Made by a program: the position numbers and the translations under genes. From the NCBI GenBank assembly GCA_049852185.1, contig CP187540.1: DNA of 64,000 nucleotides; one strand, given 5' to 3'. Of the stretch, positions 4,252 through 26,353 are shown one piece after another. Positions within the stretch are counted from its first letter, which is position 1. Each line of letters opens with the position of its first letter. This stretch comes from Methanocaldococcus sp. 28A. GTDB taxonomy: Archaea; AGJL01; Methanococci; Methanococcales; Methanocaldococcaceae. The notes below the pieces were generated by a model that saw only the letters and a program-made list of their open reading frames with translations, did no database searches and was not told the origin of the DNA.

Positions 4252-4618
4252 AGAGCTACTATTAATAGGGATTGGAGGATTTTTTGGGGCTATTTTTAGA
4301 TATTTAATTAGCGGAATTGTCCCAGTAAAATTTGGATTGCCTACTGGAACATTGATAGTTAATTTAATAGGTAGTTTTATCTTAGGATTTTTGATGTATA
4401 GCTCTCTACTAACTTCAATACCAAGTGAATATAAATTGCTTATTGGAACTGGCTTTTGTGGAGCTTTAACTACATTTTCAACATTTTCTTATGAAACCTT
4501 TGCCTTAGTTGATGAAGGACTATTATTTAAAGCTCTGCTAAATATATTACTAAATATAATTGGCTGTTTAATTATGGTTTATCTTGGTAGAATTGTAGTT
4601 TTAGCCATATTTAGATAG
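4244..4618 (+). CDS. crcB: Fluoride channel CrcB/Fluc
   Basis: GGFFGAIFRY, GTLIVN and GFCGALTTFSTF signatures; ATG at 4244 preferred. Confidence 0.95.
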   Translation: MIRELLLIGIGGFFGAIFRYLISGIVPVKFGLPTGTLIVNLIGSFILGFLMYSSLLTSIPSEYKLLIGTGFCGALTTFSTFSYETFALVDEGLLFKALLNILLNIIGCLIMVYLGRIVVLAIFR

Positions 4619-4620
4619 AG

Positions 4621-4956
4621 GTGAAATATATGATAAAAGTAAAAATTTTGAAAATTTATTCAAGAGAAGGAGATAAATTTAAAGGGGAGCTAATGTATAA
4701 ATATATAGTTAAAATGCTGAAAAGGGAGGGAATTAGTGGAGCTACCGTTTATAAGGGAATATGCGGTTATGGGGTTAGAGGAATAGCTGAAGTAGATATA
4801 TTTAGATTGTCCATAAACCTTCCAGTAATTATTGAATGCATTGATATTGAAGAAAATATAAATAAGGTATTGCCTAAATTACATGAAATTATCAAAGATA
4901 ATGGGTTGATAGTAATAACTGATGGCTATGTGTATAAAGGTGAAAATCATGAGTAA
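4621..4956 (+). CDS. DUF190 (PII-like) protein
   Basis: GISGATVYKGICGYG and LSINLPVIIECID; usual crcB neighbour. Confidence 0.85.
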   Translation: MKYMIKVKILKIYSREGDKFKGELMYKYIVKMLKREGISGATVYKGICGYGVRGIAEVDIFRLSINLPVIIECIDIEENINKVLPKLHEIIKDNGLIVITDGYVYKGENHE

Positions 4957-7729: not shown

Positions 7730-7795
7730 AACTTTTTTATTTTTTAAAATGATAGTTAAAATATTATAAATTAAAGATTAAAAAAGGGATTTTTT

Positions 7796-8926
7796 ATGTT
7801 TCTATTAGACCCATTTTCTGGAATTAGTGGAGATATGTTTTTAGCAGCTATGATTGATTTTGTTAATAAAGAAAAGCTTATAAATACAATTAAAAAAGTT
7901 ATTGATGTTGATATTGAGATAAAAAGAGTTAAGAAATGTCATATAATTGCAAATAAGGTTAATATAATTCCAAAGTATAATGTTGATTATAAAGCAAATA
8001 CTTACAAAGATATTAAAAAAATTATTAAAAAAGCTGAGATTCCAAAAAATATTAAAATCTCTGCTTTAGAAATTTTAAAGATATTGACTGAGGCAGAAAG
8101 CAAAGTTCATAATGTAGATATTGAGGATGTTCATTTTCATGAAATTGGGAATTATGATACAATAGCTGATATTGTTGGAGCGGCATATATTATAAATGAA
8201 TTAAATTTAAAAAATAACTGTTTTTATAAACCAATAAATGTTGGAGGGGGTTTTGTAAAGACATCTCATGGAATAATGCCAGTTCCAGCACCAGCAACAG
8301 CTGAGATATTAAAAGGGCTTGAGATATTTTTTTCAAACATTGAGGAGGAGCTTACAACACCAACTGGAGCGGCTATCATTAAATATATAAATCCAAAACT
8401 GATTAAAGGAAGTTTTACAATAAAGGAAGTTTCTTATGGAGCAGGAGATAAAGATTTGGAGATATTGAATGTTTTGAGAGTATTTAAAATTGAAAATATC
8501 AAATTGGAAGATATTGTTTTATTGGAAACAAATGTTGATGACATTTCAGCAGAGATATTAGGTTATTTATATGAAGTTTTAGATGGAAAAGTTAGAGATT
8601 TACATTTTATTCCAACGTATATGAAAAAGAATAGACCTGCATATACAATAAGGGCAATCGTTAAAAGAGATAAAGTTAAAGAGGTAGCTAAGATTATAAT
8701 GAGAGAAACAGGGACTTTGGGAATTAGAGTTTATGATATAGGAAGAATAACCGCAGATAGAGAATTTGAAACTATAAAATTGTTTAATGAGCCTATTAAA
8801 ATAAAAATTGGAAAAATAGATGATGAAATAATATCAAAAAAAGCAGAATTTGAAGATTTAAAAAAGATAGCTAAAAAATATAAAATTCCATTGAAAGAGC
8901 TGTACTATTTTATTTTAAAAAACTAA
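7796..8926 (+). CDS. larC: Nickel pincer cofactor biosynthesis protein LarC
   Basis: GISGDM, VHFHEIG, PVPAPAT, TTPTGAA, LETNVDD and MKKNRP motifs. Confidence 0.92.
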   Translation: MFLLDPFSGISGDMFLAAMIDFVNKEKLINTIKKVIDVDIEIKRVKKCHIIANKVNIIPKYNVDYKANTYKDIKKIIKKAEIPKNIKISALEILKILTEAESKVHNVDIEDVHFHEIGNYDTIADIVGAAYIINELNLKNNCFYKPINVGGGFVKTSHGIMPVPAPATAEILKGLEIFFSNIEEELTTPTGAAIIKYINPKLIKGSFTIKEVSYGAGDKDLEILNVLRVFKIENIKLEDIVLLETNVDDISAEILGYLYEVLDGKVRDLHFIPTYMKKNRPAYTIRAIVKRDKVKEVAKIIMRETGTLGIRVYDIGRITADREFETIKLFNEPIKIKIGKIDDEIISKKAEFEDLKKIAKKYKIPLKELYYFILKN

Positions 8927-8970
8927 ATTTTTAAAATTTTTTATATTTAAAATTTAAAAATAGGGATATT

Positions 8971-9507
8971 ATGGTTGTTGAAGTTTTAAGATTAGGGCAT
9001 AGGGGAGAGAGAGATATGAGGATATCAACACATGTTGCTTTAACAGCAAGGGCATTAGGAGCTGAGAAGATAATATTCACAACTGAAGATGAACATGTTG
9101 AAAATAGTGTTAAAAAAGTTGTGGAAAGTTGGGGAGGTAATTTTAAGTTTGTTGTTGAGAAACATTGGAAAAAATACATTAGAGAATTTAAAAAAAGAGG
9201 TATTGTAGTTCATTTAACAATGTATGGTGCTAATATAAATGAGATAATGCCAGAGATTAGAGAATTGAGTAGAGAGAAGGATATATTGGTTATTGTTGGA
9301 GCTGAAAAAGTGCCAAAGGAAGTGTATGAATTGGCAGATTACAACATTTCTGTTGGAAATCAGCCACATTCTGAGGTTGCAGCTTTAGCAATCTTTTTAG
9401 ATAGGTTGTTTGAAGGTAAAACCCTCTATAGAGAGTTTGAAAATGCAAAAATAAAAATAGTCCCATCAAATCATGGAAAAGTAGTTATAAGAGAAAAACA
9501 AAATTAA
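8971..9507 (+). CDS. trm56: tRNA (cytidine(56)-2'-O)-methyltransferase
   Basis: [32 protein letters not shown] and [11 protein letters not shown]. Confidence 0.95.
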
Positions 9508-11236: not shown

Positions 11237-12244
11237 ATGAAATTCTACGATAGAGAAAGAGAAGTAAATTTTTTAAAAACCTACTGCCAATTAGAGCCGA
11301 ATTCTATACTATTTGTTTATGGGCCAAAATCATCAGGTAAAACTACTGTAATGCTTAGGGTTATTGAAGAATTGTCTAAAAATGAGGATATTATTTTCTT
11401 TTATTACGATTTGAGGAGGTATGCAACACCTACAAAAGAAGAATTTTTAGAAATATTTTTTGAGAAATCAGATAAAAAATATTTACTAAATAGATTTGAG
11501 ATTAATCTAAAAATATGGAGATTTGGGGTTGAGGAAAAGTTTGATTTTAACAATATAAAGTTAAATGATGTGTTTGATAAGATTTATGAGGGCATTGAAG
11601 CAGTTATTAAAGATGGAAAAAAACCAGTTTTAATTATTGATGAGTTGCAGAAGTTGAAAAATATTTATTTTAATGGAGGTAAATCCTTATTAAATGAATT
11701 GTTTAATTTATTTGTTCATTTAACAAAAGTTAGGCACTTATGTCATGTAATTTGCTTAACTTCCGATACTTTGTTTATTGAAGAGATTTATAAGAACTCT
11801 ACATTGGAAAATACTTCTGAATATTTCTTAATTGATTGGTTGAGGAAAGGAACTATAAGGAATATTTTAAAAGAGGAGGGTTTTAGTGAAGAAGAGGTTA
11901 ATTATGCTTTAAATTATCTATCATTACCTTATGAGATTACTCAATTGATAAATAATAAAAAACTTGGGTTGAGTGTTGAAGAGACAATAAAAAAGTGGAT
12001 AAATATTGAAAAAGATAAAATAAAATACATAATAAGGAAAAATTTGGACAAAAAAGATGAAATCCTAAAAATACTATCAAAGTTTAAAGATAATATAAAA
12101 ATAAAAAATGATGAGATTGAGGATGAATTATTTGAGACATTAAAGATATTAATTGAGAATGAAATACTGTTTTATGATGTTATTAATGGGATAATTAAGC
12201 CAACATCTATAAAGAAGTGGTTTGCTATAAAGGATATAATCTAA
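11237..12244 (+). CDS. Archaeal ATPase (COG1672 / MJ-type STAND), paralogue 1
   Basis: FYDRERE, Walker A GPKSSGKT, Walker B IIDELQ, C-terminal winged-helix-like tail. Confidence 0.9.
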   Translation: MKFYDREREVNFLKTYCQLEPNSILFVYGPKSSGKTTVMLRVIEELSKNEDIIFFYYDLRRYATPTKEEFLEIFFEKSDKKYLLNRFEINLKIWRFGVEEKFDFNNIKLNDVFDKIYEGIEAVIKDGKKPVLIIDELQKLKNIYFNGGKSLLNELFNLFVHLTKVRHLCHVICLTSDTLFIEEIYKNSTLENTSEYFLIDWLRKGTIRNILKEEGFSEEEVNYALNYLSLPYEITQLINNKKLGLSVEETIKKWINIEKDKIKYIIRKNLDKKDEILKILSKFKDNIKIKNDEIEDELFETLKILIENEILFYDVINGIIKPTSIKKWFAIKDII

Positions 12245-12282
12245 CAAATATTAAAATACATAAAAATAGAGTGGGTGGGTTT

Positions 12283-12729
12283 ATGAGTGAGGATATAATT
12301 GGAGCAACATTTCCAATACCTAAACCCTTAATAGGAAGAATATTAGATGAGCATAAAAATGTTTTTGTCAAGCCCGCAACATTAACCAAGCTTGAGAAAG
12401 GTATGAAAATTATATTTTATGCTTCAAGGGAGGAACAAGGATTTTATGGAGAGGCTGAGATTGAGAAAGTAGAGTTTTTTGAAAATCCAATGAAAATATT
12501 GGAAAAATATAAAGATGAGATGTTTTTAACTGAAGAGGAGTTTAAAGAATATATTGACTCCTCCAAAAAGTGGGGTTATGGTAGAAAAAAGAAAAAACCT
12601 TGGATGGTTATTGTTCTAAAGAATATTAAAAAGTATTCTAAGGTTGTTAAGCCAAAGAGGTTTATTACTGTTGGAGGGCGATATGTTAAAGAGAAAGAAT
12701 ATAAGGAAATTTTAAATAGAGCAATCTAA
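12283..12729 (+). CDS. DUF365-family PUA-like (ASCH/EVE-related) protein
   Basis: GATFPIP, KNVFVKP, GMKIIFYAS..GFYGEA.I pattern; ATG 12283 follows GGGTGGG. Confidence 0.75.
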   Translation: MSEDIIGATFPIPKPLIGRILDEHKNVFVKPATLTKLEKGMKIIFYASREEQGFYGEAEIEKVEFFENPMKILEKYKDEMFLTEEEFKEYIDSSKKWGYGRKKKKPWMVIVLKNIKKYSKVVKPKRFITVGGRYVKEKEYKEILNRAI

Positions 12730-12820: not shown

Positions 12821-15800
12821 ATGGAGAGATTTATAGAGAATCCAAAGTTTCCAATAAGAGAAATTAATGAGAAGAGTGAAAAAGAGAAAGGTGCTGCAAG
12901 ACCTCCATATTGGGAAATGGTATTTTATTGGACAAGAAAACCATTAATTGGAGCAAGAGGAGTTATTGCTGGCTGTTTATTACCTTATGACATTGACTTA
13001 GAGAGATTTAAAAATGCTATAGCACTTAATGAAAAAACTCCTCACAGGGAAAGTCCAAAAATTCGTAATGATTGGAAGAAGTATTTTGAAGGTAAAAAGT
13101 TATTAGACCCATTTGCAGGTTTTGGTTCTATTCCATTGGAAGGGTTGAGATTAGGTTTAGATGTTACAGCAGTTGAGTTATTACCCACAACTTATGTATT
13201 TTTAAAAGCAGTTTTAGAATATCCAAAAAAGTTTGGTAAGACACTTATAAAAGATGTGGAAAAGTGGGGGAATTGGATAACTGAAAGATTGAAAGAAGAT
13301 GAAGATATAAAAGAACTTTATGATGAAGATATTGCTGTCTATATAGGAACTTGGGAGATAAAATGCCCACACTGTGGGAAATTTACCCCTGCAATAGGCA
13401 ATTATTGGTTAGCGAGAGTTAAAGACAGCAAAGGATACAAAAGATTGGCATATATGAAACCAGAGTTTAATGGGGAGAGTGTAAATATAAAAGTTATTGA
13501 TTTAAATGCAATTTTTGGTAGTGTTGAAAATGCAAAGGTGGATACTAAGAACAACACTATTGTTTTTGTTGGAGATAATTATATAGAGAAGGTTAAGAAG
13601 GCTGTAGAAAAGGGAATTTTAAAAGAGGGTGATTTTGTAATTGATGGTAATAAAGTTGTGTTTAAAGTTCCTTCTGCTAATATAGAATCAAGAAGAAGCC
13701 AATTAACATGTCTATGTTGTGGAAATATTATAAAATATGCAGATGAAGAGGGAAGGCATTACATTGACAGAAAGAAGGGGAATAATGAATTTTATGTAAA
13801 ATTTGCTTTAAAGAAATATCATTCTGGAGATGAAAATTATGCAAGGCAGAGGTTATTGGTTAAGGTTAAAATTAAAGAGAGGGATTTAACTTTTGAACCA
13901 TGCATTGAAGAAGATAACAATAAGTTGTTAATTGCCAAACAAAAGATTAATGAGTTGTTGAGTAATGGGGATGTTGATATTCCAACCGAATCTGTTGCTC
14001 CCTGGGGTTCAAAAGGAATGGGAGGAGATATTAAAACTATCACATGGGGATTAACAACGTGGGATAAACACTTTAATCCAAGGCAGTTATTGACATTGAT
14101 AAAAATAGTTAAACTAATTAGAGAAGTTGGTAAAAAAGTAGAGGAAGAGAAAATTAATGAAGGTTGGGATAAAGATAAAGCATTTGAGTATGCTGAGGCT
14201 ATTGCTACTTATTTGAGCATGGCTATGTTGAAATATGCTGATTATAGTTCAATTTCTACAAGGTGGAACTCATCTTTAATTATGGCTAATACATTATCTA
14301 CACGAGGTATAGCAATGGTTTGGAATTATTTTGAAATCTCACCATTTGCAAAATGGACTGGCTCATGGAGACAGGGAATTGAATATACAATTCCAAAATC
14401 CTTAGAATATCTTACTGATGCCATCTCACCTAAACAAAAAACTCTAACTGAAATAATAAAATCAAATTCAATAAATATTATACAAGGGGATGCTACTTCA
14501 TTAAACCTAAATGAAAAATTTGATATTATTGTTACCGACCCACCTTATGCTGATGATGTTCCTTATACAGAATTATCTGACTTTTATTATGTTTGGCTTA
14601 AAAGAGCTTTATCTGATGTTGAAAACAACAAGTTAATTCCAAGATTCCATAAAGATGCATTCTTTAAAAAAATAGGTAAAAAATACAAGGAGATAAAAAC
14701 CCAATGGCAGGAATTTGCTAAAAAAGAAGTATCTGAAAATGCTGGAAGATTTATGAATGAGGAAAATAAAAAAGAACTTGCTAAAAAACACTTTGAAAAT
14801 CTCTTCTCTCAAGCATTTATATCTATGAGAAACCATTTAAAAGATGATGGGATTTTAGTAACCTATTATGCCCACACAAACCCAGAATCATGGGCAAATC
14901 TCTTAGAGGCTGGCTGGAAGAGAGCAAAACTAACAATAACAAGAGCCCTACCTTTAACAACTGAATCAAAGCAAAACATTGTATCAAGAGGCAAACTATC
15001 CTTAGATACTTCCATAATTGCCATCTGGAAAAAGAAAACTCTAAAAGATAAAACTTTAATCTCTACCCTAATACCAAAATTAAGAGAGAAAGGAAGAGAG
15101 ACAGCAGAGTTGTTAATAAAACATGGACAGCATGATTTAGATTTATTATATGGTGTAATGGCTGGTATATTAGAAGAGATAACCCAATACAATGAAATTG
15201 TTAGTCCAGAAGGAAAATTAACAACAAAAGATATCCTTGATAAATATGTTTATCCATTAACAATATACAGCATTATAGATGCAATTTCAAAAGAAAAAGA
15301 GGGGGCCTTGAAAATTACTACAAAACCAGCCCTCTTCTATACCACTTACAAAATCCTATTTGGTAGTAAAACATTGGGAAGTGGTGATTTAATCTTATTA
15401 AATATTTCAACAGGAATTGATGCTAAAAAGGCTGTTGAATATAATCTAATAAAAGAAGAGAGTAAAGGATTTGTCTTAAACTCTCCTGACTTAATAAAAG
15501 AACTTAATGAAAAATATCTCTACCAGTTTTTAATTGAGAAAGACATAAATCCAACAAATCCAGAAATAAAAACATCAATAGATATATTGCATTTGCTTGA
15601 ATACTATGCCTTTGCTTATGCAATAGATGCATTCAAATCTAAACTTGAAGAATTGAAAAGTAAATACCCAACAGAAACTGAAGAAGCAATAAATATTGCC
15701 AAACTAATAAACAAATATTATGCAAGTGTATTTAAAGAAATATACGCAGGCAAAAAAGACAGTGAGATTGATAAACTACTCCAAAAAGATAAAATTTATG

Positions 15801-15853
15801 AAATCTATCTAATAAGAAGATTAGTAAGATTCTTAGAAGGAAAAGCATTTTAA
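12821..15853 (+). CDS. DUF1156-domain adenine-specific DNA methyltransferase with Zn ribbon (COG1743)
   Basis: YWTRKPL (DUF1156), motif I DPFAGFGSIP, CPHC and CLCC, motif IV TDPPY, ELSDFYYVWLKR. Confidence 0.9.
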   Translation: MERFIENPKFPIREINEKSEKEKGAARPPYWEMVFYWTRKPLIGARGVIAGCLLPYDIDLERFKNAIALNEKTPHRESPKIRNDWKKYFEGKKLLDPFAGFGSIPLEGLRLGLDVTAVELLPTTYVFLKAVLEYPKKFGKTLIKDVEKWGNWITERLKEDEDIKELYDEDIAVYIGTWEIKCPHCGKFTPAIGNYWLARVKDSKGYKRLAYMKPEFNGESVNIKVIDLNAIFGSVENAKVDTKNNTIVFVGDNYIEKVKKAVEKGILKEGDFVIDGNKVVFKVPSANIESRRSQLTCLCCGNIIKYADEEGRHYIDRKKGNNEFYVKFALKKYHSGDENYARQRLLVKVKIKERDLTFEPCIEEDNNKLLIAKQKINELLSNGDVDIPTESVAPWGSKGMGGDIKTITWGLTTWDKHFNPRQLLTLIKIVKLIREVGKKVEEEKINEGWDKDKAFEYAEAIATYLSMAMLKYADYSSISTRWNSSLIMANTLSTRGIAMVWNYFEISPFAKWTGSWRQGIEYTIPKSLEYLTDAISPKQKTLTEIIKSNSINIIQGDATSLNLNEKFDIIVTDPPYADDVPYTELSDFYYVWLKRALSDVENNKLIPRFHKDAFFKKIGKKYKEIKTQWQEFAKKEVSENAGRFMNEENKKELAKKHFENLFSQAFISMRNHLKDDGILVTYYAHTNPESWANLLEAGWKRAKLTITRALPLTTESKQNIVSRGKLSLDTSIIAIWKKKTLKDKTLISTLIPKLREKGRETAELLIKHGQHDLDLLYGVMAGILEEITQYNEIVSPEGKLTTKDILDKYVYPLTIYSIIDAISKEKEGALKITTKPALFYTTYKILFGSKTLGSGDLILLNISTGIDAKKAVEYNLIKEESKGFVLNSPDLIKELNEKYLYQFLIEKDINPTNPEIKTSIDILHLLEYYAFAYAIDAFKSKLEELKSKYPTETEEAINIAKLINKYYASVFKEIYAGKKDSEIDKLLQKDKIYEIYLIRRLVRFLEGKAF

Positions 15854-15876: not shown

Positions 15877-16464
15877 ATGTCTAATTATCTAAAAGGAATA
15901 TTTGAAGATTTGGAACCAGAGGAAAAAATCATCCTCTATGCATTGGGAGCTTTAAACAACACTCCCTTAAATAGCAAAATAAAACTCCATAAATTGTTAT
16001 TCTTAGTTTCTAATGTATTTCCGCAACTAAATGAATTACTTGAATTTGAAGAACACTTTTTAGGTCCTTACAGTGAAAAAATAAACTATATCCTCGACGA
16101 TTTAATTAGTTTGGGATTGGTAGAAAAAAAAGGTAGCAAATACAAACTTACTGAAAAAGGAATGGAGATATATAAACGACTAAAACCAAAACCAGGACTA
16201 AAAGAGGTCTTAGAAGATTTTAAAGAATTTATACACGATTTAACAGATGATGAAATATTGGCATTTATCTATGTCTCATATCCAAAATATACCAAAGAAT
16301 CTATAAAGTGGGATGAATTGAAAAAACAAAGAGTTGATTTAGCCATCTCATTACTAAAAAAACAAAAAATTAGTTTTGGAAAAGCTGCACAAATAGCTGG
16401 ACTCTCTCCTATGGAATTTGAAGAATTGCTTTTAAAAAGAGGGATAAAGTGGAGGGGAATATAA
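15877..16464 (+). CDS. YwgA/Panacea-like winged-helix domain fused to UPF0175 HTH (putative antitoxin)
   Basis: N-terminal KLHKLLFL...F....LGPYS; C-terminal ISFGKAAQIAGLS..EF..LL.KRGI. Confidence 0.7.
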   Translation: MSNYLKGIFEDLEPEEKIILYALGALNNTPLNSKIKLHKLLFLVSNVFPQLNELLEFEEHFLGPYSEKINYILDDLISLGLVEKKGSKYKLTEKGMEIYKRLKPKPGLKEVLEDFKEFIHDLTDDEILAFIYVSYPKYTKESIKWDELKKQRVDLAISLLKKQKISFGKAAQIAGLSPMEFEELLLKRGIKWRGI

Positions 16465-17027
16465 CGGTCAAAATTCTTGATAATACAGTAATAAGTGCAA
16501 GTTTAAAAGAAATAAAAACCATTAACCTCATAGAAAGATGTTTAAAAAGATATAAATTAGTTACATCAGAATATGTATTTGTAGAGACATTAAAAGGATT
16601 TTCAAATCCTACAATCGAAAATTGCTATTCAGATATTGAAGTCCATGAAATTAATGAAGAAATGTTTAATTTTCTTTTAGATTACTTAGAAAGGAGATTC
16701 CCATATTTACACAGAGGAGAACTTTCATCCTTCTTAGTGGCTTTATTAAAATATGCTGAAAATGGTAAATCATATTACTATGTAACAGACGACCGTAGAA
16801 TGAGAGATACAATCTCTAAAATTTTAAATGACCCGATAGTAAAATCAAAATTAAAAAATCCTATAACTCCAGAAAATTTTAACCTAACAGGGACTATTGG
16901 GCTTCTTTTAAGATTAAAATATAGGGGATTAATATCAAAAGAGGAAGCTAAAAAGATTGCAGATGATTTAGAAAACAGTTCTTTTAGAGTAACTCCTGAA
17001 CTATTAAAAAAATTGAGAGAGGATTGA
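16449..17027 (+). CDS. PIN-domain nuclease (DUF3368/COG2405 type)
   Basis: ILDNTVIS, LHRGE, VTDDRRMR and TGTIGLL; overlaps upstream gene. Confidence 0.85.
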   Translation: MEGNITVKILDNTVISASLKEIKTINLIERCLKRYKLVTSEYVFVETLKGFSNPTIENCYSDIEVHEINEEMFNFLLDYLERRFPYLHRGELSSFLVALLKYAENGKSYYYVTDDRRMRDTISKILNDPIVKSKLKNPITPENFNLTGTIGLLLRLKYRGLISKEEAKKIADDLENSSFRVTPELLKKLRED

Positions 17028-17028
17028 T

Positions 17029-18126
17029 ATGGGCAAGCTGAAAGTTCATATAAACTCTATAGATGAAAATTTAATGTTTAGAAGCTTGGATATAAAGGTA
17101 GGTTCTAAAACAATGGCAACCACTCCAATAAAAGTTAGCCCTCCAGAACACCCAATAAGTCCTATAAATGAGGTATATAAAAAATTTTCTATTGATAAAT
17201 TGAAAAAATGCAATATTGACAACTCTATAGAAACAAAGACAAACCAGGAAATAAGAAAATGTTTAATAGCAGATAAGTTAAATATGGTTATTGTTGATTA
17301 TACCTCTGATATTTTACCTAAAAAAGAACACTTAGAAGTTTTAATGGATTTGCAATATAATGGAGATGTTGTTATAACTCCAATTTTCTCTAAACTCGTA
17401 AAAACTCTTAAAGAGGAAAAACTAAAAAATACATTCATTAAATTAACAAATCAATGTATAGAAATAGCAAATACCTTAAATAATAAAACTATAGTTGGAA
17501 TAATCCCAGCAAAGATGCCAAGACAATTTATTGAGGATATTATAAAAAACTATGTTGATAAAAATATAACTCATTACATTATAGACCTTGATAGGAGAAC
17601 TATCTCAGCGAATACTTCTTGGATTATAAAGTTATTTAGAACTATCCATGATAATGGAATTCTTGATGAAACTTTGTTATATTGTGTTAATGGTAGTGAA
17701 GGTAAATTCTTAAAAAATGCTGAGGTAATCCCTGCTCATGATTTTATAAATTCTGGTTTTGGAATTGATATATTAGGTTTGAAACATGTCCCTCCTCAAT
17801 TACCTCCAGAAGTATGGGCAAAATTAAAAAATATAAAAAAGGAAGAAATTTATAGAATATTTAATAGAAATACTTATGGTTATCATAAAGTAAATGTGGA
17901 GATTCTCCAAAATTTGGGACTATTTCCTAACCAAAATACTGTAAAAATCTATAATATAGAAAAACAGTTTGATGAAGCCATTTATTTACAAAACCTTCTT
18001 AAGGAAGAATCAACCGTAGAGCAATATGTGTCATCAAAATCTCAAATGAAAGATATAATTCCAGAAATCAAAAAAGTTAAACATGAAGTTAAAGAAAAAT
18101 CAATGAAACTTGATTTTTTCCTATAA
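17029..18126 (+). CDS. Uncharacterised protein, probable divergent tRNA-guanine transglycosylase-like TIM barrel
   Basis: R...IKVG.K...TP, LQ..GDVVITP, IVGII, GIDILG and YN......EA..LQ..L.E echo the TGT layout; DSGG and Zn-binding Cys absent. Confidence 0.45.
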   Translation: MGKLKVHINSIDENLMFRSLDIKVGSKTMATTPIKVSPPEHPISPINEVYKKFSIDKLKKCNIDNSIETKTNQEIRKCLIADKLNMVIVDYTSDILPKKEHLEVLMDLQYNGDVVITPIFSKLVKTLKEEKLKNTFIKLTNQCIEIANTLNNKTIVGIIPAKMPRQFIEDIIKNYVDKNITHYIIDLDRRTISANTSWIIKLFRTIHDNGILDETLLYCVNGSEGKFLKNAEVIPAHDFINSGFGIDILGLKHVPPQLPPEVWAKLKNIKKEEIYRIFNRNTYGYHKVNVEILQNLGLFPNQNTVKIYNIEKQFDEAIYLQNLLKEESTVEQYVSSKSQMKDIIPEIKKVKHEVKEKSMKLDFFL

Positions 18127-18207
18127 ATAAGTTGATAATTAATATATAGACTTGGATTTGCTTATTCCATGGTGATAAAATGAAATTCTACTAACTTGGT
18201 GAATATT

Positions 18208-19227
18208 ATGAAATTCTACGATAGAGAGAAAGAAGTTAAATATTTAAAAACTTACTGCCAGTTAGAGCCAAACTCTATATTATTCGTCTATGGACCAAAA
18301 TCTTCTGGCAAAACTACTGTAATGCTTAGAGTTATAGAAGAACTAAACAAAAGGGATGATATAATATTCTTCTACTACGATTTAAGGGAATATGCGACAC
18401 CAACAAAAGAAGAGTTTTTAAGTATATTCTTTGAAAAATCAGACAAAAAATATCTTTTAAATAAATTAGAAATCGATTTAAAAATATTTAAATTTGGAGT
18501 AGAAGAGAATTTTGATTTTAATAATTTATCATTAAATGATGTTTTTAATAAAATAAAAGAAAGCATCAAAGAGGTTGTTAAAGAAGGTAAAAAACCTATA
18601 TTGGTTATTGATGAATTGCAGAAATTAAAGAGCATCTATTTCAATGGTGGTAAATCCTTACTAAATGAGTTATTTAATCTATTTGTCCATCTAACAAAAG
18701 TTAGGCATCTATGTCATGTTATTTGTTTAACCTCTGATACTTTGTTTATTGAGGAGATTTATAAGAACTCTACATTAGAGAATACTTCTGAATATTTTTT
18801 AATTGATTGGTTAAATATAGATGATATTAAAAACATTCTAAAAGAAGAGGGTTTTAGTGAAGAAGAGGTTAATTATGCTTTGAATTATATATCATTACCT
18901 TATGAAATCTCACAATTAATAAATAATAAAAAATTAGGTTTATCTGTTGAAGAAGCAATAAAGCAGTGGATTAATATTGAGAGAGATAAAATTTTATATT
19001 TAATATCAACTCAAAAGGAATTTGAGATGAAAAATTTAGAAAATGCTCTGAAATTATTTGAAGATAAAATAAAAGTTGATATCAAAGAGATAATAAAAAA
19101 CAATCTTATGGATGAGGTTAAATTTTTGATAAAAAATGAGATTTTATTTTATGATGTAATAAATGGCATAATTAAGCCAACTTCTGTAAAAAAATGGTTT
19201 GCTATTAAAGAAATAATTATGGGTTAA
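18208..19227 (+). CDS. Archaeal ATPase (COG1672), paralogue 2
   Basis: Near-identical to 11237-12244; ATG 18208 follows GGTGA. Confidence 0.9.
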   Translation: MKFYDREKEVKYLKTYCQLEPNSILFVYGPKSSGKTTVMLRVIEELNKRDDIIFFYYDLREYATPTKEEFLSIFFEKSDKKYLLNKLEIDLKIFKFGVEENFDFNNLSLNDVFNKIKESIKEVVKEGKKPILVIDELQKLKSIYFNGGKSLLNELFNLFVHLTKVRHLCHVICLTSDTLFIEEIYKNSTLENTSEYFLIDWLNIDDIKNILKEEGFSEEEVNYALNYISLPYEISQLINNKKLGLSVEEAIKQWINIERDKILYLISTQKEFEMKNLENALKLFEDKIKVDIKEIIKNNLMDEVKFLIKNEILFYDVINGIIKPTSVKKWFAIKEIIMG

Positions 19228-19416: not shown

Positions 19417-22400
19417 GTGGAGGGGAGAAAAATGCAAAAATTAAAAGTTTGGGAGGATGTTTTAGATGAGACATTAGATATGCAGGTAGCTCCTGAATTG
19501 GGAGATGTTGTAAATAAAACTGCTCACAAAATTTATACTGAACCAGAGGAATTCTTTAAAAGAACTTACTTTACTGATTCCATGGTTCAAATACTTGATA
19601 GGCTATTAAATACCTTAAGTGGGGATGAAAGACACAATATATTCTTAATATATTCTCTTTTTGGGGGAGGGAAGACACATACAATATTAACCATATACCA
19701 TGCAGTTAATAATCCTGATTCACTTACAAATGAAAATATTCTAAAAGATTATCCTGAAGATAAAAAAGAGAAAATAAAAAGTATTGGAATAAAATTAAAA
19801 GACTTTCAAAATCAAAACATAAAAATACTTCCAATATATGGTAAAGGAAGCTTAGGGCAACCAAGTAATCCATTAAACTTCGGTGCTTATGAAGTTAAAA
19901 CCTTATGGGGCTATATAGGACATTACTTAGGAAAGTATGCACTTGTTGAAAAATATGATAAAAACTTAACAGTTCCTCCAATAGACACAATTAGAGAACT
20001 TTTAAAAGGAAATAAAGTTGTGTTTTTAGTTGATGAAATTGTTCATTATATTGATAATTTATACAATAGTGGAAATGAAGATGATAGGAGATACGCAAAA
20101 AATATCTGTAAGTTTTTTGACGCTTTATCAACTGCATTAATTGGAACTGATAGTATAATGATTCTAACCTTACCAATGGAAAAAGATGGGGAAAAAGTTG
20201 AAAAAGGGTATAATAAGGAGATAGTTCTTTCACTTCATAGAGCAGTTGAGAGAGTCGGGGGAGCAGAACTTTACTCACCACTAAGAACCGAAGGAATTTC
20301 AGGTGGAGAAATTGTTGAAATTTTAAAAAAGAGAATTTTTGAAGACATAGACAAAGATTTTAAAGAGAAGATTATTGAAAAATATAGAGAAGCTTATTCA
20401 AACACTGATATATTTGGTAGATTTGAAAATAATTTATCAAAAACATATCCTTTTCATCCAGATTATATAGCAACGCTTAGAACTATAGTTGAAAGAGGGA
20501 ACTTGCAGAAAACAAGGGATATGGTTAGAATAACAAGAATTGTTATAAGAAACTTATTACAAGAAGAAGAGTTTCCTACCTTAATAATGCCATATCATAT
20601 AAATCCAAGAAATGAAAAACTAAAAGGGATATTGTTTGGAAAAAATCAAACATTTGCTGATTATGGAGGAGCTGTATTAGATGTAGATTTATCTCTTGAA
20701 AAATTTAAAAGATTTTCAAAACCAGAATTGGCAGAAATTATTTTGAGATACATATTCTTAAAAACCTATCCTTATGATTCTCCAATACCACTTGAAGGAT
20801 TCCCAAAAAAAGATAGTATTGCAAGGGCAGTTTATGAAATCAATTTCTTTGAAAGATATGCATTGCAATTAACTGATATTCCAAACACAATAAGTGAAAT
20901 TGAAAAAAGCTCATCATTCATATATTTAAACAAAAAAGATGGAATCTTCTGGTTTTGGAGAGTTGCAAATGTATCTCAAATGGTTGAAAGTAAAAAAGAT
21001 GAATTACTCTCCCTCCATATAATTGGTGTTTATAGAAAACTTGAAGAATTTGTTAAGAGGCATGTAGGAGGAAAAGGATTAAAAACCAAAAAAATTGAAG
21101 AGAATAAAATAACATTTTTTAAAAAGAATAATATTGTAGTATCAAGAGACGCACAAGAGTTCCAAGATGATGAAGATTATAAATTGCAAATACTCATAAG
21201 AGATGATGTTGATAAATCTACACTTTATAGAATAATTTATCAGTATGGGACTGGAACAAGAACATATAGAAATACAATAACTGTTTGTTATGCTGATAAA
21301 TCCCTAAACAAATTGCTTGAAATAACTGCTCGTATAATGGCATGTGAGAAAGTAAAAGACGATATTAAAGCAAAATATAAATCTTATGGAGAGGAGGTTG
21401 TTCAAATACAATCAAATATGGTAAGGACTATTGAAGATGATGCAAAAGCAGAATTTGATGAATCTGTAGCCAGCATATTTAAAAAAGTTGCATATCCTAA
21501 AGATAATGATGTGGAAATTGTTGATGCTACTCCAACATCCAAGTCAATACTTGAAAATGTATATTCAACACTTGTTGAATGGGGAAAAATTCCATCAAGT
21601 CTAACTTTTGAAGGTCTTGAATATTATTTAAATGAGGTAAATATATCCTTTGATAAACCAATTTATTTTTCAGAACTTAGAAGTATTATTAGAACTAATA
21701 CAAAACTTCCATTTATTACTGATGAACAATTAAAAGAAGTGATAAAAGAAGGAGTTGAAGACCTAAAAATTGGTATTGAGAGAGATGGAAGAGTTTTATT
21801 TAAAAGAATCTATCAAAATGTTCCTAATCATAATGAATCTGGAGTTCCTCTCAATGACATAAAAGAAAATGATATAATCTTGCCTCAAATAATGGCATTA
21901 AACAAACAAATAAACCAGATTTTAAAAGAAGAAAAGGATGAAGTTGTTGATAATAAGTATAAAAAGGTTTGGTATGAGGTTTATATTTCAGATTCTGAAT
22001 CATTGCCACTAAGAGAACTCGTTGAAGAAACAGAAGATGGCTTTATTGTTAAATCTGAGTTTGTAGATTTAGTAATAAATGGATATATAGTAAGAAAGAG
22101 TGAAGAGAAGATTATTGGAGAAAGAAATGAGTTTTCTTTGAAATTGGATAGACATAATATTGAAGGAAAACCAGGAGAAGATGTAGATGTAAAAGTAATA
22201 ATAACACCGTTAAAAGGCAATGATTTTGAAGTGAATATTGAAGTTGAAGAAGGGATATTAGATTTAACACATGGAAAGGTTCCTTATGAAACAATTTGGC
22301 ATATAAAAATTCCTGAATCTAAAAAAACTTATGAGATAAAAGCAATATCTGAAGATGGTGTAGTAAAAACTGATAAAATAACCATCACTCCAAGAACTGA

Positions 22401-22746
22401 TATTGTAGATGTTCATGAATTATCTGAAAACTTAAAAGGAGGAAAATTATTAGAAATAAAGGGAATTAAATCCTATGATGATTTATGTATGATTCCTGAA
22501 AACTTAAATGTCAAAGTTAGAGGAAACTTTATTATTGAAAATGATGAATACTTTAAAGCAGATTTCAATAATCTACCTCTTGATGTTGTAAAATATATTA
22601 TTGAAGAGATAGAAGGAGTTATAGAACATAAGGCAAAGTTAGACGTAGATATTATTTTTACAGAAGAGATAAAAATTGATGACTTAATATTTGAGAAACT
22701 TAGATGCTTAAATAAAAAAGTAGTATTTAAAATTAAAAAATGCTGA
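19417..22746 (+). CDS. DUF499-family AAA+ ATPase (anti-phage associated)
   Basis: PEEFFKRTYFT, Walker A FGGGKTH, Walker B FLVDE, EILKKRIF, YPFHP, LQKTR; start may be ATG 19432. Confidence 0.9.
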   Translation: MEGRKMQKLKVWEDVLDETLDMQVAPELGDVVNKTAHKIYTEPEEFFKRTYFTDSMVQILDRLLNTLSGDERHNIFLIYSLFGGGKTHTILTIYHAVNNPDSLTNENILKDYPEDKKEKIKSIGIKLKDFQNQNIKILPIYGKGSLGQPSNPLNFGAYEVKTLWGYIGHYLGKYALVEKYDKNLTVPPIDTIRELLKGNKVVFLVDEIVHYIDNLYNSGNEDDRRYAKNICKFFDALSTALIGTDSIMILTLPMEKDGEKVEKGYNKEIVLSLHRAVERVGGAELYSPLRTEGISGGEIVEILKKRIFEDIDKDFKEKIIEKYREAYSNTDIFGRFENNLSKTYPFHPDYIATLRTIVERGNLQKTRDMVRITRIVIRNLLQEEEFPTLIMPYHINPRNEKLKGILFGKNQTFADYGGAVLDVDLSLEKFKRFSKPELAEIILRYIFLKTYPYDSPIPLEGFPKKDSIARAVYEINFFERYALQLTDIPNTISEIEKSSSFIYLNKKDGIFWFWRVANVSQMVESKKDELLSLHIIGVYRKLEEFVKRHVGGKGLKTKKIEENKITFFKKNNIVVSRDAQEFQDDEDYKLQILIRDDVDKSTLYRIIYQYGTGTRTYRNTITVCYADKSLNKLLEITARIMACEKVKDDIKAKYKSYGEEVVQIQSNMVRTIEDDAKAEFDESVASIFKKVAYPKDNDVEIVDATPTSKSILENVYSTLVEWGKIPSSLTFEGLEYYLNEVNISFDKPIYFSELRSIIRTNTKLPFITDEQLKEVIKEGVEDLKIGIERDGRVLFKRIYQNVPNHNESGVPLNDIKENDIILPQIMALNKQINQILKEEKDEVVDNKYKKVWYEVYISDSESLPLRELVEETEDGFIVKSEFVDLVINGYIVRKSEEKIIGERNEFSLKLDRHNIEGKPGEDVDVKVIITPLKGNDFEVNIEVEEGILDLTHGKVPYETIWHIKIPESKKTYEIKAISEDGVVKTDKITITPRTDIVDVHELSENLKGGKLLEIKGIKSYDDLCMIPENLNVKVRGNFIIENDEYFKADFNNLPLDVVKYIIEEIEGVIEHKAKLDVDIIFTEEIKIDDLIFEKLRCLNKKVVFKIKKC

Positions 22747-22826: not shown

Positions 22827-23282
22827 GTGAAAGGAAATACTCAATATATGGTTAAACTTAGATATATTAAGCCTATAAAATTGCCAATTGTAAAAGAACA
22901 AAAATTAGCAGAATTTATTCCTATAATTCCTCTTGAGGACAACAAATACATAAAAGGTAAAATTGAAGGAGTTGCGAGAGTATTTCTTCCAGAGTTTATT
23001 AATTTCGCTAAACACCTTGGATTTGAAGTTTCTGGTAAAAAGAGGATAACATTAAAAACTGATGATGATTATGCATATCTAAAATTGTTTGTCTATGCCA
23101 TGGTTATGCAAGCATTAAAAGATAATACAATGTGGGGAAAGTTAGAAGACCACATTCTTTCTATGGAACCTCTATCCTTACGTTATTGGGCATCAACTTT
23201 TAGAAGTAGATATTGGGAATATAATAATAGAAGAAAATTATTAAAAATAGCAAAATGTTTTTTGGAAGTTGAAGAACTTTAA
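22827..23282 (+). CDS. Small protein at the DUF3780 position of DUF499 systems
   Basis: Lies directly after DUF499; C-terminal M....LRYW motif; the family call relies on context. Confidence 0.5.
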   Translation: MKGNTQYMVKLRYIKPIKLPIVKEQKLAEFIPIIPLEDNKYIKGKIEGVARVFLPEFINFAKHLGFEVSGKKRITLKTDDDYAYLKLFVYAMVMQALKDNTMWGKLEDHILSMEPLSLRYWASTFRSRYWEYNNRRKLLKIAKCFLEVEEL

Positions 23283-23353: not shown

Positions 23354-26353
23354 TTGCAAAATAAAATAAAAAACTATCTCATAAAAAAGATATTTTTGCA
23401 TGACCCATTACTATTTTTCTATGCTTTAAATCATCCTGCATCAAAAAAACAAATAAAGCCATTTATACACCAAATTTATCTCCTATACAATGCTATGCTT
23501 CTTCGTCCAGTCCGTTTTTTAATTGCAGATGAGATTGGCTTAGGTAAAACAATAGAATCTCTTACAATAGCAAGATATTTAGAACTAAAAGATGGGATAA
23601 AAAAGATTTTAGTTTTAACTCCAAAAATTTTAAGAGAGCAGTGGGTTTCAGAAATAAAAAGAGTTGGAGGAATTCCAAGGATTGTTAAAAATGGGAATGA
23701 TATAAATAATATTAAAAGTTTTTTACAGTATTATGATTCTGCAGTTTATATTATAATCTCAATAGACCTTGCAAAAAGGTATGTTGATAAAATATTGCAA
23801 ATTGATTGGGACTTAGTTATTGTTGATGAAGCCCATAACATTACCAAAAATACTCAAAGGGGAAAATTAGTAGAAAAACTTTCAAAAAAAGTAAGAAATA
23901 TGCTTTTACTTTCCGCAACTCCACACAGAGGAGACCATCAAGATTATCTATATAGATTAAAGATTTTAGATTACACACTTATAAATGATTTTGACAAATT
24001 AAATACTCAAAATTTCTATCGTAAGACTCATGACATATTAGTTTTTAGAAGGACAAAAAAATTAGTAAATGCCCTTGAGAATAAAAAAGTCTTTAAAGAT
24101 TGCCAGTTTAATGCAGTAGTAGTGGATATATCAGAAGAGGAAAAAATATTTTTTAACCTTCTTGAAAATACTCTTAAAAATATACTGAAAAATACAAAAA
24201 AGAGTTCTCCAATAGCTCTTTTAGCAGTGATTTTAGGTAAGAGGGCATCTTCAAGTTATAAAGCAGCAATTGAAACACTGAATAGGATTATAAAAAGTAG
24301 CATTTTAAAAACTGATGATATTGATGTGTCAGAAGATATTCAAAACCTCTTCTCATTAAGTTTTGAAGAAATAGAATTTGAAGATTATAGAGAAGTATCT
24401 GACATAATAAATAATATTGTTGATAAATATTCACCCTATTTAAGCCAAGAACAAAAAGAATTATTTGAAAATCTCCTTAAAACAACAACTAACATTATAG
24501 TTAAAAAAGATAGTAAAATTGATGCTTTAGCAAAAATTATTGCAGAACATATTGAAAATAATGAGAAAATTGTAGTATTTACTGAATATGTTGATACTCT
24601 CAAATATCTTCAAGAAAATCTGCCTAAGTATCTAAATAACTATGGTGTTAAAATAGACACAAATGAAATATTAACACTTTCAGGAGAGGACAAAAATAGG
24701 ATGGAGAATATTACTGAGGAGATTAATAAAAAATTTGGGGATTATGGAAAAATTTTACTGGCAACAGATGTCGCTTCTGAAGGTCTTAATTTACAAATTG
24801 CAAGTGTCCTAATAAATTATGACTCCCCATGGAGTCCTATAAAATTAGAGCAAAGAATTGGTAGGGTTTGGAGGTTAGGGCAAGAAAAGGACGTGTCTAT
24901 TTATAATATTTTCCTTTCAAATAGAATGGACTTGGAACTACTCAATAACCTTTATAAAAAAATTATGAATATTAAAACTGCACTTGATAATCAATTAGCA
25001 ATAGGTAAGGAGATATATATTGCAAATGCTGAAAATCTATTTAACTTAGAAGAATTCGCATACATAAAAAACTTGTCCGAGTATGATATTATAATTTCAG
25101 CAATAATTGGAGAGTTAGGCAGTTATACAGAAGAAATTGTCAAAACTCTAAAAGTTATTAGAAATAAGCTAAAAATAATGGGTATTTTTCCAGAAGAACG
25201 TGCTGAAGAAATAAAAAAGGAAGTTTTAAATGTTATCCAAAACGAAAATTATTTAGAGATTGAAAAGGTTGAAGAAATTTTGAGGGACTATCATGATAAA
25301 GTCTTAAATGACAAAATAAATACCCAAAATATGTGGTATCAAATCATAAAATCAAAAAATGATAAAGATTTACAAATATCAAGAATTGTTATAAAGAATC
25401 AATTTAAAAATAGGGAATATTTGTTTTTTGTAAAGATATTAAATGAAGATAATGAGATTGTTTGGGAAATTCCATTGATGGTCTCTTATCAAAAAAAAAT
25501 TAAGTTAATGACAAGTGTTGAATTGTTAAAATACTTAACAACAATCTTTAGCAAAGATTTATTTTTCACAGAATACATAGAAAAACCTAATGAAAAGCAA
25601 GTATTGGCTATTAAAGGAAATGTCCTTACTTATGCCAGAAGTATTGTAAGTAACATAAATAAAAGAATTTCAAATTACGAAAATCTCATGGATTCAGGTT
25701 TAAAAGATGATAAATTATTTAAGAATTTGAAAATAAGTGTTAGTAATCCTATAATTATTGATTATCTGCCAGAGAAGGAATTTTCAATTGGAAAAGTTAT
25801 TCCTTTAGATATTGTGGATAATTTAGATAGAGATAATATTATTTTACCAGATGAAAATGATTTAAAGGTAATAAATAGGAATTTTCTGCCCCTTGAAGAA
25901 CTTGTGAAAATTGAAAAATTGGCTATGAATGTTATAATGAATCTCGAAGAACAAAGATTAGCAAGTAAATATGGATATGAAAATAAAGGTAAGATTTGGG
26001 ATGTTTTAGATGTCTCTCTACATGAGCATTATGATATAAAAGTTATTGAAAATGGAGAGGAGAAGTATATTGAAGTAAAAGGTCATAAGGGATTATTACC
26101 AATTGCAGAACTTACAGAGGCGGAATACAGATTTGCCATGGAAAATAAAGATAAATACTACCTATATATTGTTTGTAATATTGGGGAAGATGGGAAAAAT
26201 GCTATAATATTTGAGATTCATAATCCTTTAGACAATGAAAATAGAAAAGTTTATTTAATTAGAGATGGGGAAAAAATAGATATAAGCAAACACTATAAAA
26301 ATACTAACATCGTTGAAAGAAAAAGATATCTCCTAAAATTGGGACAAAAATAG
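23354..26353 (+). CDS. SNF2-family helicase with C-terminal DUF3883 (PD-(D/E)XK) nuclease
   Basis: ADEIGLGKT, DEAH, SATPH, SEGLNLQ, QRIGRVWR; C-terminal YDI......YIEVKG. Confidence 0.9.
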   Translation: MQNKIKNYLIKKIFLHDPLLFFYALNHPASKKQIKPFIHQIYLLYNAMLLRPVRFLIADEIGLGKTIESLTIARYLELKDGIKKILVLTPKILREQWVSEIKRVGGIPRIVKNGNDINNIKSFLQYYDSAVYIIISIDLAKRYVDKILQIDWDLVIVDEAHNITKNTQRGKLVEKLSKKVRNMLLLSATPHRGDHQDYLYRLKILDYTLINDFDKLNTQNFYRKTHDILVFRRTKKLVNALENKKVFKDCQFNAVVVDISEEEKIFFNLLENTLKNILKNTKKSSPIALLAVILGKRASSSYKAAIETLNRIIKSSILKTDDIDVSEDIQNLFSLSFEEIEFEDYREVSDIINNIVDKYSPYLSQEQKELFENLLKTTTNIIVKKDSKIDALAKIIAEHIENNEKIVVFTEYVDTLKYLQENLPKYLNNYGVKIDTNEILTLSGEDKNRMENITEEINKKFGDYGKILLATDVASEGLNLQIASVLINYDSPWSPIKLEQRIGRVWRLGQEKDVSIYNIFLSNRMDLELLNNLYKKIMNIKTALDNQLAIGKEIYIANAENLFNLEEFAYIKNLSEYDIIISAIIGELGSYTEEIVKTLKVIRNKLKIMGIFPEERAEEIKKEVLNVIQNENYLEIEKVEEILRDYHDKVLNDKINTQNMWYQIIKSKNDKDLQISRIVIKNQFKNREYLFFVKILNEDNEIVWEIPLMVSYQKKIKLMTSVELLKYLTTIFSKDLFFTEYIEKPNEKQVLAIKGNVLTYARSIVSNINKRISNYENLMDSGLKDDKLFKNLKISVSNPIIIDYLPEKEFSIGKVIPLDIVDNLDRDNIILPDENDLKVINRNFLPLEELVKIEKLAMNVIMNLEEQRLASKYGYENKGKIWDVLDVSLHEHYDIKVIENGEEKYIEVKGHKGLLPIAELTEAEYRFAMENKDKYYLYIVCNIGEDGKNAIIFEIHNPLDNENRKVYLIRDGEKIDISKHYKNTNIVERKRYLLKLGQK

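Follow-up and report, generated by a model that had tools for sequence, protein, structure and literature searches.

What is the function of three tightly packed genes that directly follow a DUF1156 methylase gene in the archaeon Methanocaldococcus sp. 28A, and do these genes belong together at all? The genes, here called A, B and C, occupy positions 15877-18126 of the window, i.e. the whole 64,000-nucleotide (nt) stretch of contig CP187540.1 (assembly GCA_049852185.1) that was analyzed. The analysis revealed that they are translationally coupled and co-inherited, and that together they probably make up a unit of three parts, so far undescribed, that serves in defence or as a toxin-antitoxin system. 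With a probability of roughly 0.55, the trio is a conserved, horizontally mobile toxin-antitoxin/abortive-defence module, which tends to sit inside restriction-modification-like systems; any particular chemistry is far less probable. The three genes (sizes of products in amino acids, aa) are:

15877-16464, plus strand: gene A, 195 aa; putative antitoxin, adaptor or regulator
16449-17027, plus strand: gene B, 192 aa, GTG start; DUF3368/COG2405-type PIN-like protein, putative RNase toxin
17029-18126, plus strand: gene C, 365 aa; unnamed family with the (beta/alpha)8 fold of the tRNA-guanine transglycosylase (TGT) superfamily, putative second effector or target-recognition subunit

The frames of A and B have 16 nt in common, with the antitoxin-like gene coming first, and a single nucleotide separates B from C; these coordinates and distances agree with those given in a first-pass annotation made from the sequence alone. 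Gene A starts 23 nt past the stop of the gene (12821-15853) encoding the 1010-aa DUF1156 methylase, and a GAGG motif is placed approximately 9 nt 5' of this start. At the other end of the trio, a run of six T residues lies immediately ahead of the stop codon of gene C, and an AT-rich, TATA-like stretch is located between this gene and the next one.

A neighbourhood survey of 14 genome loci (one genome per species), performed with Pfam and custom hidden Markov models (HMMs), revealed that A, B and C are co-directional in 12 of them, with B-C spacings of -13 to +1 nt. These 12 trios originate from a Methanococci metagenome-assembled genome (MAG), Altiarchaeales, Thermoplasmata, Methanosarcinales, Hodarchaeota, Methanocellaceae/Methanosaeta, and MAGs labelled as Clostridia and Gammaproteobacteria. 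In the remaining two loci, both of haloarchaeal origin, A is divergent from C. Among 25 metagenome loci, 10 contain complete trios and 6 end at a contig edge with B directly upstream of C. B, or A together with B, is thus found directly upstream of C in 16 of the 19 judgeable metagenome loci, a number that leaves aside 6 loci beginning within or just before C. One of the 25 carries an A-B operon convergent with C (L107), and in another A is divergent from C (L109). The loci are not all independent, since L011, L012, L013 and L096 have identical HMM scores and L002 is the G008 element. The triad proposed by the first-pass annotation is therefore a recurrent arrangement. In the Altiarchaeales A3 locus L004 (4360-4921), B is split into two frames (4360-4503 and 4478-4921), with A and C intact.

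Within the phylum of the window, a match to C is present in 8 of 40 genomes; the distribution is patchy and several copies are decayed. The C copy of genome G002 is a pseudogene with a stop codon, and in G015 (L036, approximately 6990-9170, minus strand) the trio, lying behind a methylase gene of the same type, is fragmented, with frameshifts or stop codons in all three genes.

Strong matches to the N-terminal domain of A (E<=1e-10) were also found in 8 of these 40 genomes, and 7 of the 8 are located within ~1 kb of a match to C. In G022, L014, L044 and L109, A and C are paired either in the absence of B or in divergent orientation. Among 301 haloarchaeal genomes, C occurs in 12 and a match resembling the A N-terminal domain in 47; the three best of these matches (E<=1e-45) all lie beside C, and the weaker ones are mostly found in genomes without C. 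The closest subfamily of the A N-terminal domain thus travels with C, and the PIN protein is a frequent, non-obligatory third member. The wide occurrence of relatives of this domain with other neighbours (47 of the 301 genomes) fits a promiscuous antitoxin domain, and the overall picture is that of an antitoxin-type domain used in many settings, of which one subfamily is dedicated to C.

Two further observations concern the surroundings of C. In G022 (L033, 6460-6891, minus strand), a true Panacea protein (Pfam SocA_Panacea, E 1.8e-18) is encoded directly downstream of the A-C pair and is followed by a resolvase; no other protein in the phylum's 40 genomes matches the Pfam Panacea model. In the haloarchaeal loci L045-L050, a conserved open reading frame (ORF) of 140-160 aa, ending in a CPxC...H...C zinc-ribbon-like motif, either is convergent with C or lies just downstream of it. 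This ORF, which may encode an alternative partner of C, is present also on plasmid CP050016.1 (207551-208015).

Protein A is composed of two parts. Its C-terminus is a UPF0175 domain (Pfam, residues 143-192; 46 bits against a cut-off of 27.9, E 4.4e-12), and residues 70-103 match the Pfam winged helix HTH_45. Three PADLOC profiles recognized the protein: PDC-M19A over residues 16-153 (E 2.1e-12), DarG, aligned onto profile positions 160-279 of 329 (E 2e-6), and PDC-S70 in the UPF0175 part (E 7e-5). The match to the NCBIfam DarG model (E 0.003) is far below the cut-off of that model. For the predicted structure, which has a predicted local distance difference test score (pLDDT) of 92.7, the best match is DarG as present in the M. 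tuberculosis DarTG complex (7yk3; Foldseek E 9.5e-4, probability 1.0). In VIA-align, residues 12-166 of the model were superimposed on the C-terminal domain of this DarG with Z 11.6 and a root-mean-square deviation (rmsd) of 3.9 over 147 aligned residues, and ordinary winged-helix proteins came next (Z<=9.5). Protein A is therefore an N-terminal module of ~150 aa, which resembles the DarG C-terminal domain and contains a winged helix-turn-helix, fused to UPF0175.

The first-pass annotation had recognized that UPF0175 carries an extra domain here and had taken it for a Panacea-type one. An extra domain resembling toxin-binding ones is indeed present, and so is the KLQKL...GPxS motif on which the Panacea assignment was based; the family assignment itself did not hold, as the best match is the DarG C-terminal domain and the Pfam Panacea model (SocA, PF13274) matched neither A, nor the A homologues scanned, nor anything else in the genome. 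A comparison of profiles with hhalign (14 A proteins against 26 true Panacea proteins) gave a weak result (Prob 3.4%, E 0.013), in which the 39 aligned columns correspond to the motif. Membership of A in the Panacea family was rejected on these two grounds, and the resemblance in motif and fold was retained. One paper regards DUF4065 (Panacea) proteins as homologues of the C-terminal domain by which DarG inhibits DarT (PMC13621843). "Panacea-like" is therefore best taken as a resemblance at the superfamily level and not as membership.

Protein B matches Pfam DUF3368 at residues 147-189 (40.5 bits against a cut-off of 27.3, E 2.5e-10), the model covering only 46 C-terminal positions, and PADLOC PDC-S70 (E 1.4e-5). 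The DUF3368/COG2405 family has been assigned to the PIN proteins (PMC5499597). Ten homologues were aligned, and residues D11, E46, E91, D114 and D115 do not vary in any of them; this acidic set is that expected of an active PIN domain. UPF0175 has been reported exclusively with COG2405/DUF3368, and the two form a known predicted toxin-antitoxin pair; the three-component PIN systems described in the same source contain a helix-turn-helix protein together with a DUF955 protease, a composition other than that of A-B-C (PMC5499597).

Protein C had no match in Pfam or PADLOC at E<=0.1 and a single sub-threshold, chance-level match in NCBIfam, and a search of PDB sequences with its profile gave nothing below E 0.8. 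Its family comprises 14 proteins in a collection clustered at 90%, in which the three that are named are called "hypothetical", and an exhaustive search retrieved 292 representatives at E<=0.001; judging by the sparse taxon records of the Atlas, these representative clusters are mostly archaeal. No longer, fused forms were found between 731 and 2085 aa, the range of 640-730 aa lying outside this search.

The structural model of C, based on 136 sequences, has a pLDDT of 96.1 and a predicted TM-score (pTM) of 0.93. All of its top 50 Foldseek matches in the PDB are TGTs (E ~1e-7, TM 0.5-0.56), at sequence identities of 7-10%. VIA-align, a search independent of Foldseek, yielded the following values:

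bacterial TGT 3unt_A: Z 20.6, 290 aligned, rmsd 3.6
ArcTGT 1iq8_A: Z 20.3, 306 aligned
QTRT2: Z 17.6, 284 aligned
Cap10: Z 14.9, 271 aligned
DpdA: Z 13.7, 245 aligned
unrelated TIM barrels: Z <=12.2

In an independent search of the ESM Atlas, a TGT cluster was matched at TM 0.67, compared with ~0.5 for other barrels. As the TGT matches are well above those to generic barrels, the fold suggested for C by the first-pass annotation from its motif layout is borne out, and the model places C in the TGT superfamily as an unnamed family. The motifs listed there are all present, namely R18..I22..G25.K27...T32P33, L108Q109..G112D113, V156GII, G245IDIL and N309......E316.

The hallmarks of TGT catalysis are DSG(G) and GxDxFD, the latter with the nucleophilic Asp, and both motifs are present in the ArcTGT encoded in the same genome. 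The DSG motif is absent from the C sequence, and the column matching its Asp (D90) is not conserved. Cys does not exceed 24% in any column of the alignment of 136 sequences, hence the Zn site (CxCxxC...H) is missing as well; in both respects the earlier reading of this protein was accurate. According to the strand order of the model, GIDILG (245-250) forms the last barrel strand and, upon inspection of the motifs, Gly250 would occupy the position of the TGT nucleophile Asp. The hhalign alignment of C with ArcTGT is sensible only at the N-terminal hairpin with TP and at the C-terminal N...E helix, and it sets GIDILG against the Zn motif, contrary to the mapping by strand order. This alignment is too weak for the mapping of residues and conflicts with the strand order, and for these reasons the equivalence of Gly250 is put forward solely as an inference. 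C is not a decayed barrel. N221 is invariant across the 136 sequences, at identities as low as ~20%, and at least 90% of them retain E48, D186, D238, D247, G250, H253, P33, P118, K337 and several aromatic residues; judged from this alignment, the family has its own nearly invariant polar set consisting of E48, D186, N221, D238, D247 and H253.

Embedding of the trio in restriction-type defence loci, in archaea and in some bacteria, is the rule and not an accident. The locus in the window is an Hma system (DUF499-centred, BREX-related), all three components of which, i.e. the SNF2 helicase-nuclease, the DUF1156 methylase and the DUF499 ATPase, are encoded together. The flanking genes are:

12821-15853, plus strand: HmaB, DUF1156 N6-adenine DNA methylase (Pfam DUF1156; PADLOC MTase_II E 0, HmaB E 1.8e-50)
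18196-19227, plus strand: ATPase_2 (MJ1010-like), between the trio and HmaC (Pfam ATPase_2 E 1.6e-55), a paralogue of 11237-12244
19417-22746, plus strand: HmaC, DUF499 ATPase (Pfam DUF499 E 5.7e-292; PADLOC HmaC E 3.9e-43)
23354-26353, plus strand: HmaA, SNF2 helicase with a C-terminal NOV_C nuclease-like domain (Pfam SNF2-rel_dom, Helicase_C and NOV_C; PADLOC HmaA E 2.7e-61)

With HmaB on one side of it and HmaC on the other, the trio is thus internal to a multi-gene defence locus. The matches to HmaA, HmaB and HmaC give a precise identity to the system that the first-pass annotation had called, too vaguely, restriction-like. Systems of this kind were renamed "DUF499-centred BREX-related type 1" in a 2026 paper (PMC12839542).

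Other trios embedded in Hma loci are those of G008, G015 (the decayed copy, which follows HmaB), L012, L013, L096, L092 and L091. The gene order in L012, L013 and L096 is HmaA-ABC-HmaB-x-HmaC, unlike that in the window, and C is only 33% identical. Type I loci host the trio in L090 (HsdR-HEAT-ABC-HsdS-HsdM) and L097, type III loci in L086 (Mod, Res, then ABC) and L008 (ABC, then Mod), and a type IIG-like locus in L005. Further defence or mobile contexts include a KwaB gene (L087), a HEPN gene (L107), and integrases or resolvases (L088, L010, L005 and G022). No evident defence genes were found near the loci L003, L004, L006, L007, L089, L095 and L102. As for mobile elements, phage records contained no match to C, none of 149 pattern matches in IMG/VR was confirmed, and plasmids yielded one C copy, annotated as hypothetical, on a Haloarcula megaplasmid. 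Genes embedded in Hma loci have been studied as candidates before, and 7 of 9 defended against phage (10.1101/2024.01.29.577857). In BREX and BREX-related loci, a back-up role as effectors has been ascribed to PIN, HEPN and Schlafen RNases (PMC12839542). PDC-S70, a PIN candidate obtained by the guilt-by-embedding approach, has been reported to be mainly archaeal (PMC12988326).

Several features of the host loci deserve separate mention. The two MJ1010-like ATPase_2 paralogues of the window (11237-12244, likewise with a Pfam E of 1.6e-55, and 18196-19227) flank the DUF365-HmaB-A-B-C stretch, and their DNA is ~80% identical over 300 nt at the 5' end and also over 92 nt at the 3' end. The DUF365 gene (12217-12729, E 5.6e-45) overlaps the end of the first of them and lies just upstream of HmaB. 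ATPase_2/DUF234 genes are carried likewise by the Hma loci of G001 and G015. A 151-aa ORF between HmaC and HmaA (22827-23282) had no family match and no similarity to the similarly placed small ORFs of G001 or L012. In the Hma locus of G001, a genome of the same genus (L034, 5644-8200), a distant C-like gene of 449 aa (E 4e-22 to the family profile) is located 8 nt upstream of the DUF1156 HmaB gene; it is preceded by a 220-aa gene with a weak match to the A N-terminal domain (E 1.3e-11), and there is no PIN gene. The type I operon of L090 (4617-6467) contains a gene for a 617-aa HEAT-repeat protein between HsdR and the trio.

How might such a module operate? Protein A would keep both of its partners inactive, with UPF0175 acting on the PIN protein and the DarG-like domain on C. 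The former pairing is suggested because the published association of the two families is exclusive, the latter because, by analogy, DarG holds DarT and because A and C are linked in the loci surveyed. Protein A would probably also autoregulate the operon. Upon infection, or when A is lost or displaced, B would be freed to degrade RNA, and the loss of A would likewise free C to act on nucleic acid, i.e. tRNA or DNA. C could act on bases as an enzyme of remodelled chemistry, or it could serve the PIN protein as the partner that recognizes the substrate, and the whole module may back up the surrounding restriction system. A more specific and distinctly speculative version can be formulated, in which C is a new TGT-barrel nucleic-acid toxin that damages or exchanges a base in tRNA or DNA, or delivers tRNA to the PIN protein, and is silenced by the DarG-like domain. 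The trio would then stand guard over restriction systems: should a virus disable Hma or the restriction-modification system, or get around it, A would be lost and both effectors would shut the cell down. This would parallel the role of PrrC, which sits within a type I locus.

A number of results weigh against the general reading of the trio as a toxin-antitoxin/abortive-defence module, concerning both the nature of C and the constancy of the unit. The Pfam TGT model (PF01702) matched none of 124 members of the C family at E<=1, and the hhalign comparison of C with 30 ArcTGT catalytic domains (Prob 6.9%, E 0.005) yielded no TGT signal at the level of sequence. C seems to lack the aspartates that TGT uses as nucleophile and for base binding, and TGT-like chemistry should therefore not be assumed for it. 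In L103, neither A nor B is present in the ~520 nt upstream of C, and genome G026 has a strong match to the A N-terminal domain and no C. In haloarchaea, an A-like match lies near C in only 4 of the 12 genomes that have C, and in 6 of the 12 (L045-L050) the zinc-ribbon ORF stands beside C with no A or B nearby. The trios of L003, L004, L089, L095 and L102 are situated amid housekeeping genes, and a defence-island neighbourhood alone is weak functional evidence in any case.

Other explanations of the locus have to be considered alongside. One is that an ordinary UPF0175/PIN pair, known as a predicted pair (PMC5499597) and represented by PADLOC PDC-S70, happens to stand beside an orphan gene. 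This is already contradicted by the locus surveys and by the A-C linkage: the same order with overlapping or abutting frames is found in Methanococci, Altiarchaeales, Thermoplasmata, Methanosarcinales, Hodarchaeota, and Clostridia and Gammaproteobacteria MAGs, with C proteins of 33-47% identity, and A stays with C even where the orientation changes; chance adjacency is thus extremely improbable. C could, on the other hand, be a DNA-modifying or base-exchanging accessory of the DpdA kind, serving the restriction-modification or Hma system, with A and B being an ordinary addiction pair which stabilizes the island. The structural match to DpdA (Z 13.7), the DNA methylases that adjoin the trio in many loci and the TGT homologues reported in BREX-related capture systems (PMC12839542) would suit such a role. 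The genome also encodes ArcTGT, along with a weaker second TGT-like match. Possession of ArcTGT presumably implies that precursors of 7-deazaguanine are made (archaeosine pathway). The constant partner of C is, however, the closest subfamily of the A N-terminal domain and not a type of methylase; the hosts vary (Hma, type I, type III and type IIG-like) and some loci have none; the neighbouring ORFs scanned, in partial ORF sets, gave no match to QueC or a Dpd family; and the catalytic motifs of TGT are absent from C. Such an accessory role is thus doubtful.

C may also be a non-catalytic third component, i.e. a sensor, scaffold or chaperone (as in tripartite toxin-antitoxin-chaperone systems, or in the manner of QTRT2) that controls the stability or release of A, the PIN protein being the sole toxin. 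The missing DSG motif and Zn cysteines point in this direction, as does the match (Z 17.6) to QTRT2, which is a non-catalytic TGT paralogue. Precedents are provided by Cap10, a TGT fold remodelled for protein binding (10.1101/2025.04.06.647259), and by Panacea domains, for which a role as sensors in multidomain antitoxins has been proposed (PMC10440598). Set against this are the A-C pairs existing without any PIN gene (G022 and L014) and the nearly invariant polar set of C (N221 at 100% in 136 sequences), which suits a catalytic or ligand pocket better than it does a scaffold, so that this explanation, too, appears rather unlikely.

TGT-fold proteins are emerging in defence, through Dpd DNA modification and the protein deazaguanylation of Cap10, and the trio, if it is indeed a toxin-antitoxin/abortive-defence module, would add a third, chemically remodelled branch of TGT-fold defence proteins, tied to a toxin-antitoxin pair. 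It gives a name to a so far "hypothetical" family (292 representative clusters), provides the PDC-S70 UPF0175/PIN candidate with a three-gene form, and offers a testable module that occurs recurrently in Hma, type I and type III loci. This is useful in archaea, the immunity of which is poorly charted.

To what extent is this composition new? No paper linking UPF0175/DUF3368 with a TGT-fold gene was found. UPF0175 and DUF3368 are absent from the main text of PMC12839542, and TGT or transglycosylase has no occurrence in the text of the embedding preprint (10.1101/2024.01.29.577857); the supplementary tables of both might list the trio. Not found in print were the three-gene unit, the DarG-like/UPF0175 fusion and the TGT-fold family with a remodelled pocket. 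Already known are A and B as a variant of the PDC-S70 pair, embedding in Hma, and TGT homologues in defence (Dpd, Cap10 and BREX-related capture). The first-pass annotation was aware of no described system of this composition; within the literature searched, this stands for the trio as a whole, and it has to be qualified for its first two genes, as the resemblance of A and B to the PADLOC candidate PDC-S70 means that the composition is not wholly undescribed.

Compared with the TGT superfamily, C shares the (beta/alpha)8 barrel, the N-terminal beta-hairpin followed by the TP motif, the GxD segment on the last barrel strand and the C-terminal helix with N...E, but it lacks a PF01702 match, DSG and conserved Cys, and has its own polar set instead. 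Cap10, a TGT-family protein without a Zn site that was remodelled to bind a protein partner (10.1101/2025.04.06.647259), resembles C in the missing Zn site. The DpdA and Cap10 systems, however, have QueC, DpdB/C or a CD-NTase as partners, whereas C is accompanied by the DarG-like/UPF0175 protein and the PIN protein; C had no PADLOC DpdA or Cap match, and no DpdB/C, Cap9 or CD-NTase was found among the neighbours scanned.

The A-B half of the trio corresponds to the UPF0175/DUF3368 pair (COG2886/COG2405, PDC-S70), in which an antitoxin-like gene likewise precedes and overlaps the PIN gene. It differs from this pair in that UPF0175 (75 positions in the Pfam model) is the tail of a 195-aa protein, and in that a third gene, of 365 aa and without a PADLOC model, is coupled downstream. 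Protein A is connected with DarTG through its N-terminal domain, the nearest structural match of which is the DarT-binding C-terminal domain of DarG, and with Panacea/PanA through the shared KLQKL...GPxS motif; unlike these, it has no macrodomain, no DarT and no Pfam Panacea match, and its domain is fused to UPF0175. Finally, like the defence genes embedded in Hma, BREX and restriction systems, the trio is found inside multi-gene operons of the restriction type, which fits both the concept of "guilt by embedding" (10.1101/2024.01.29.577857) and the idea of back-up effectors (PMC12839542).

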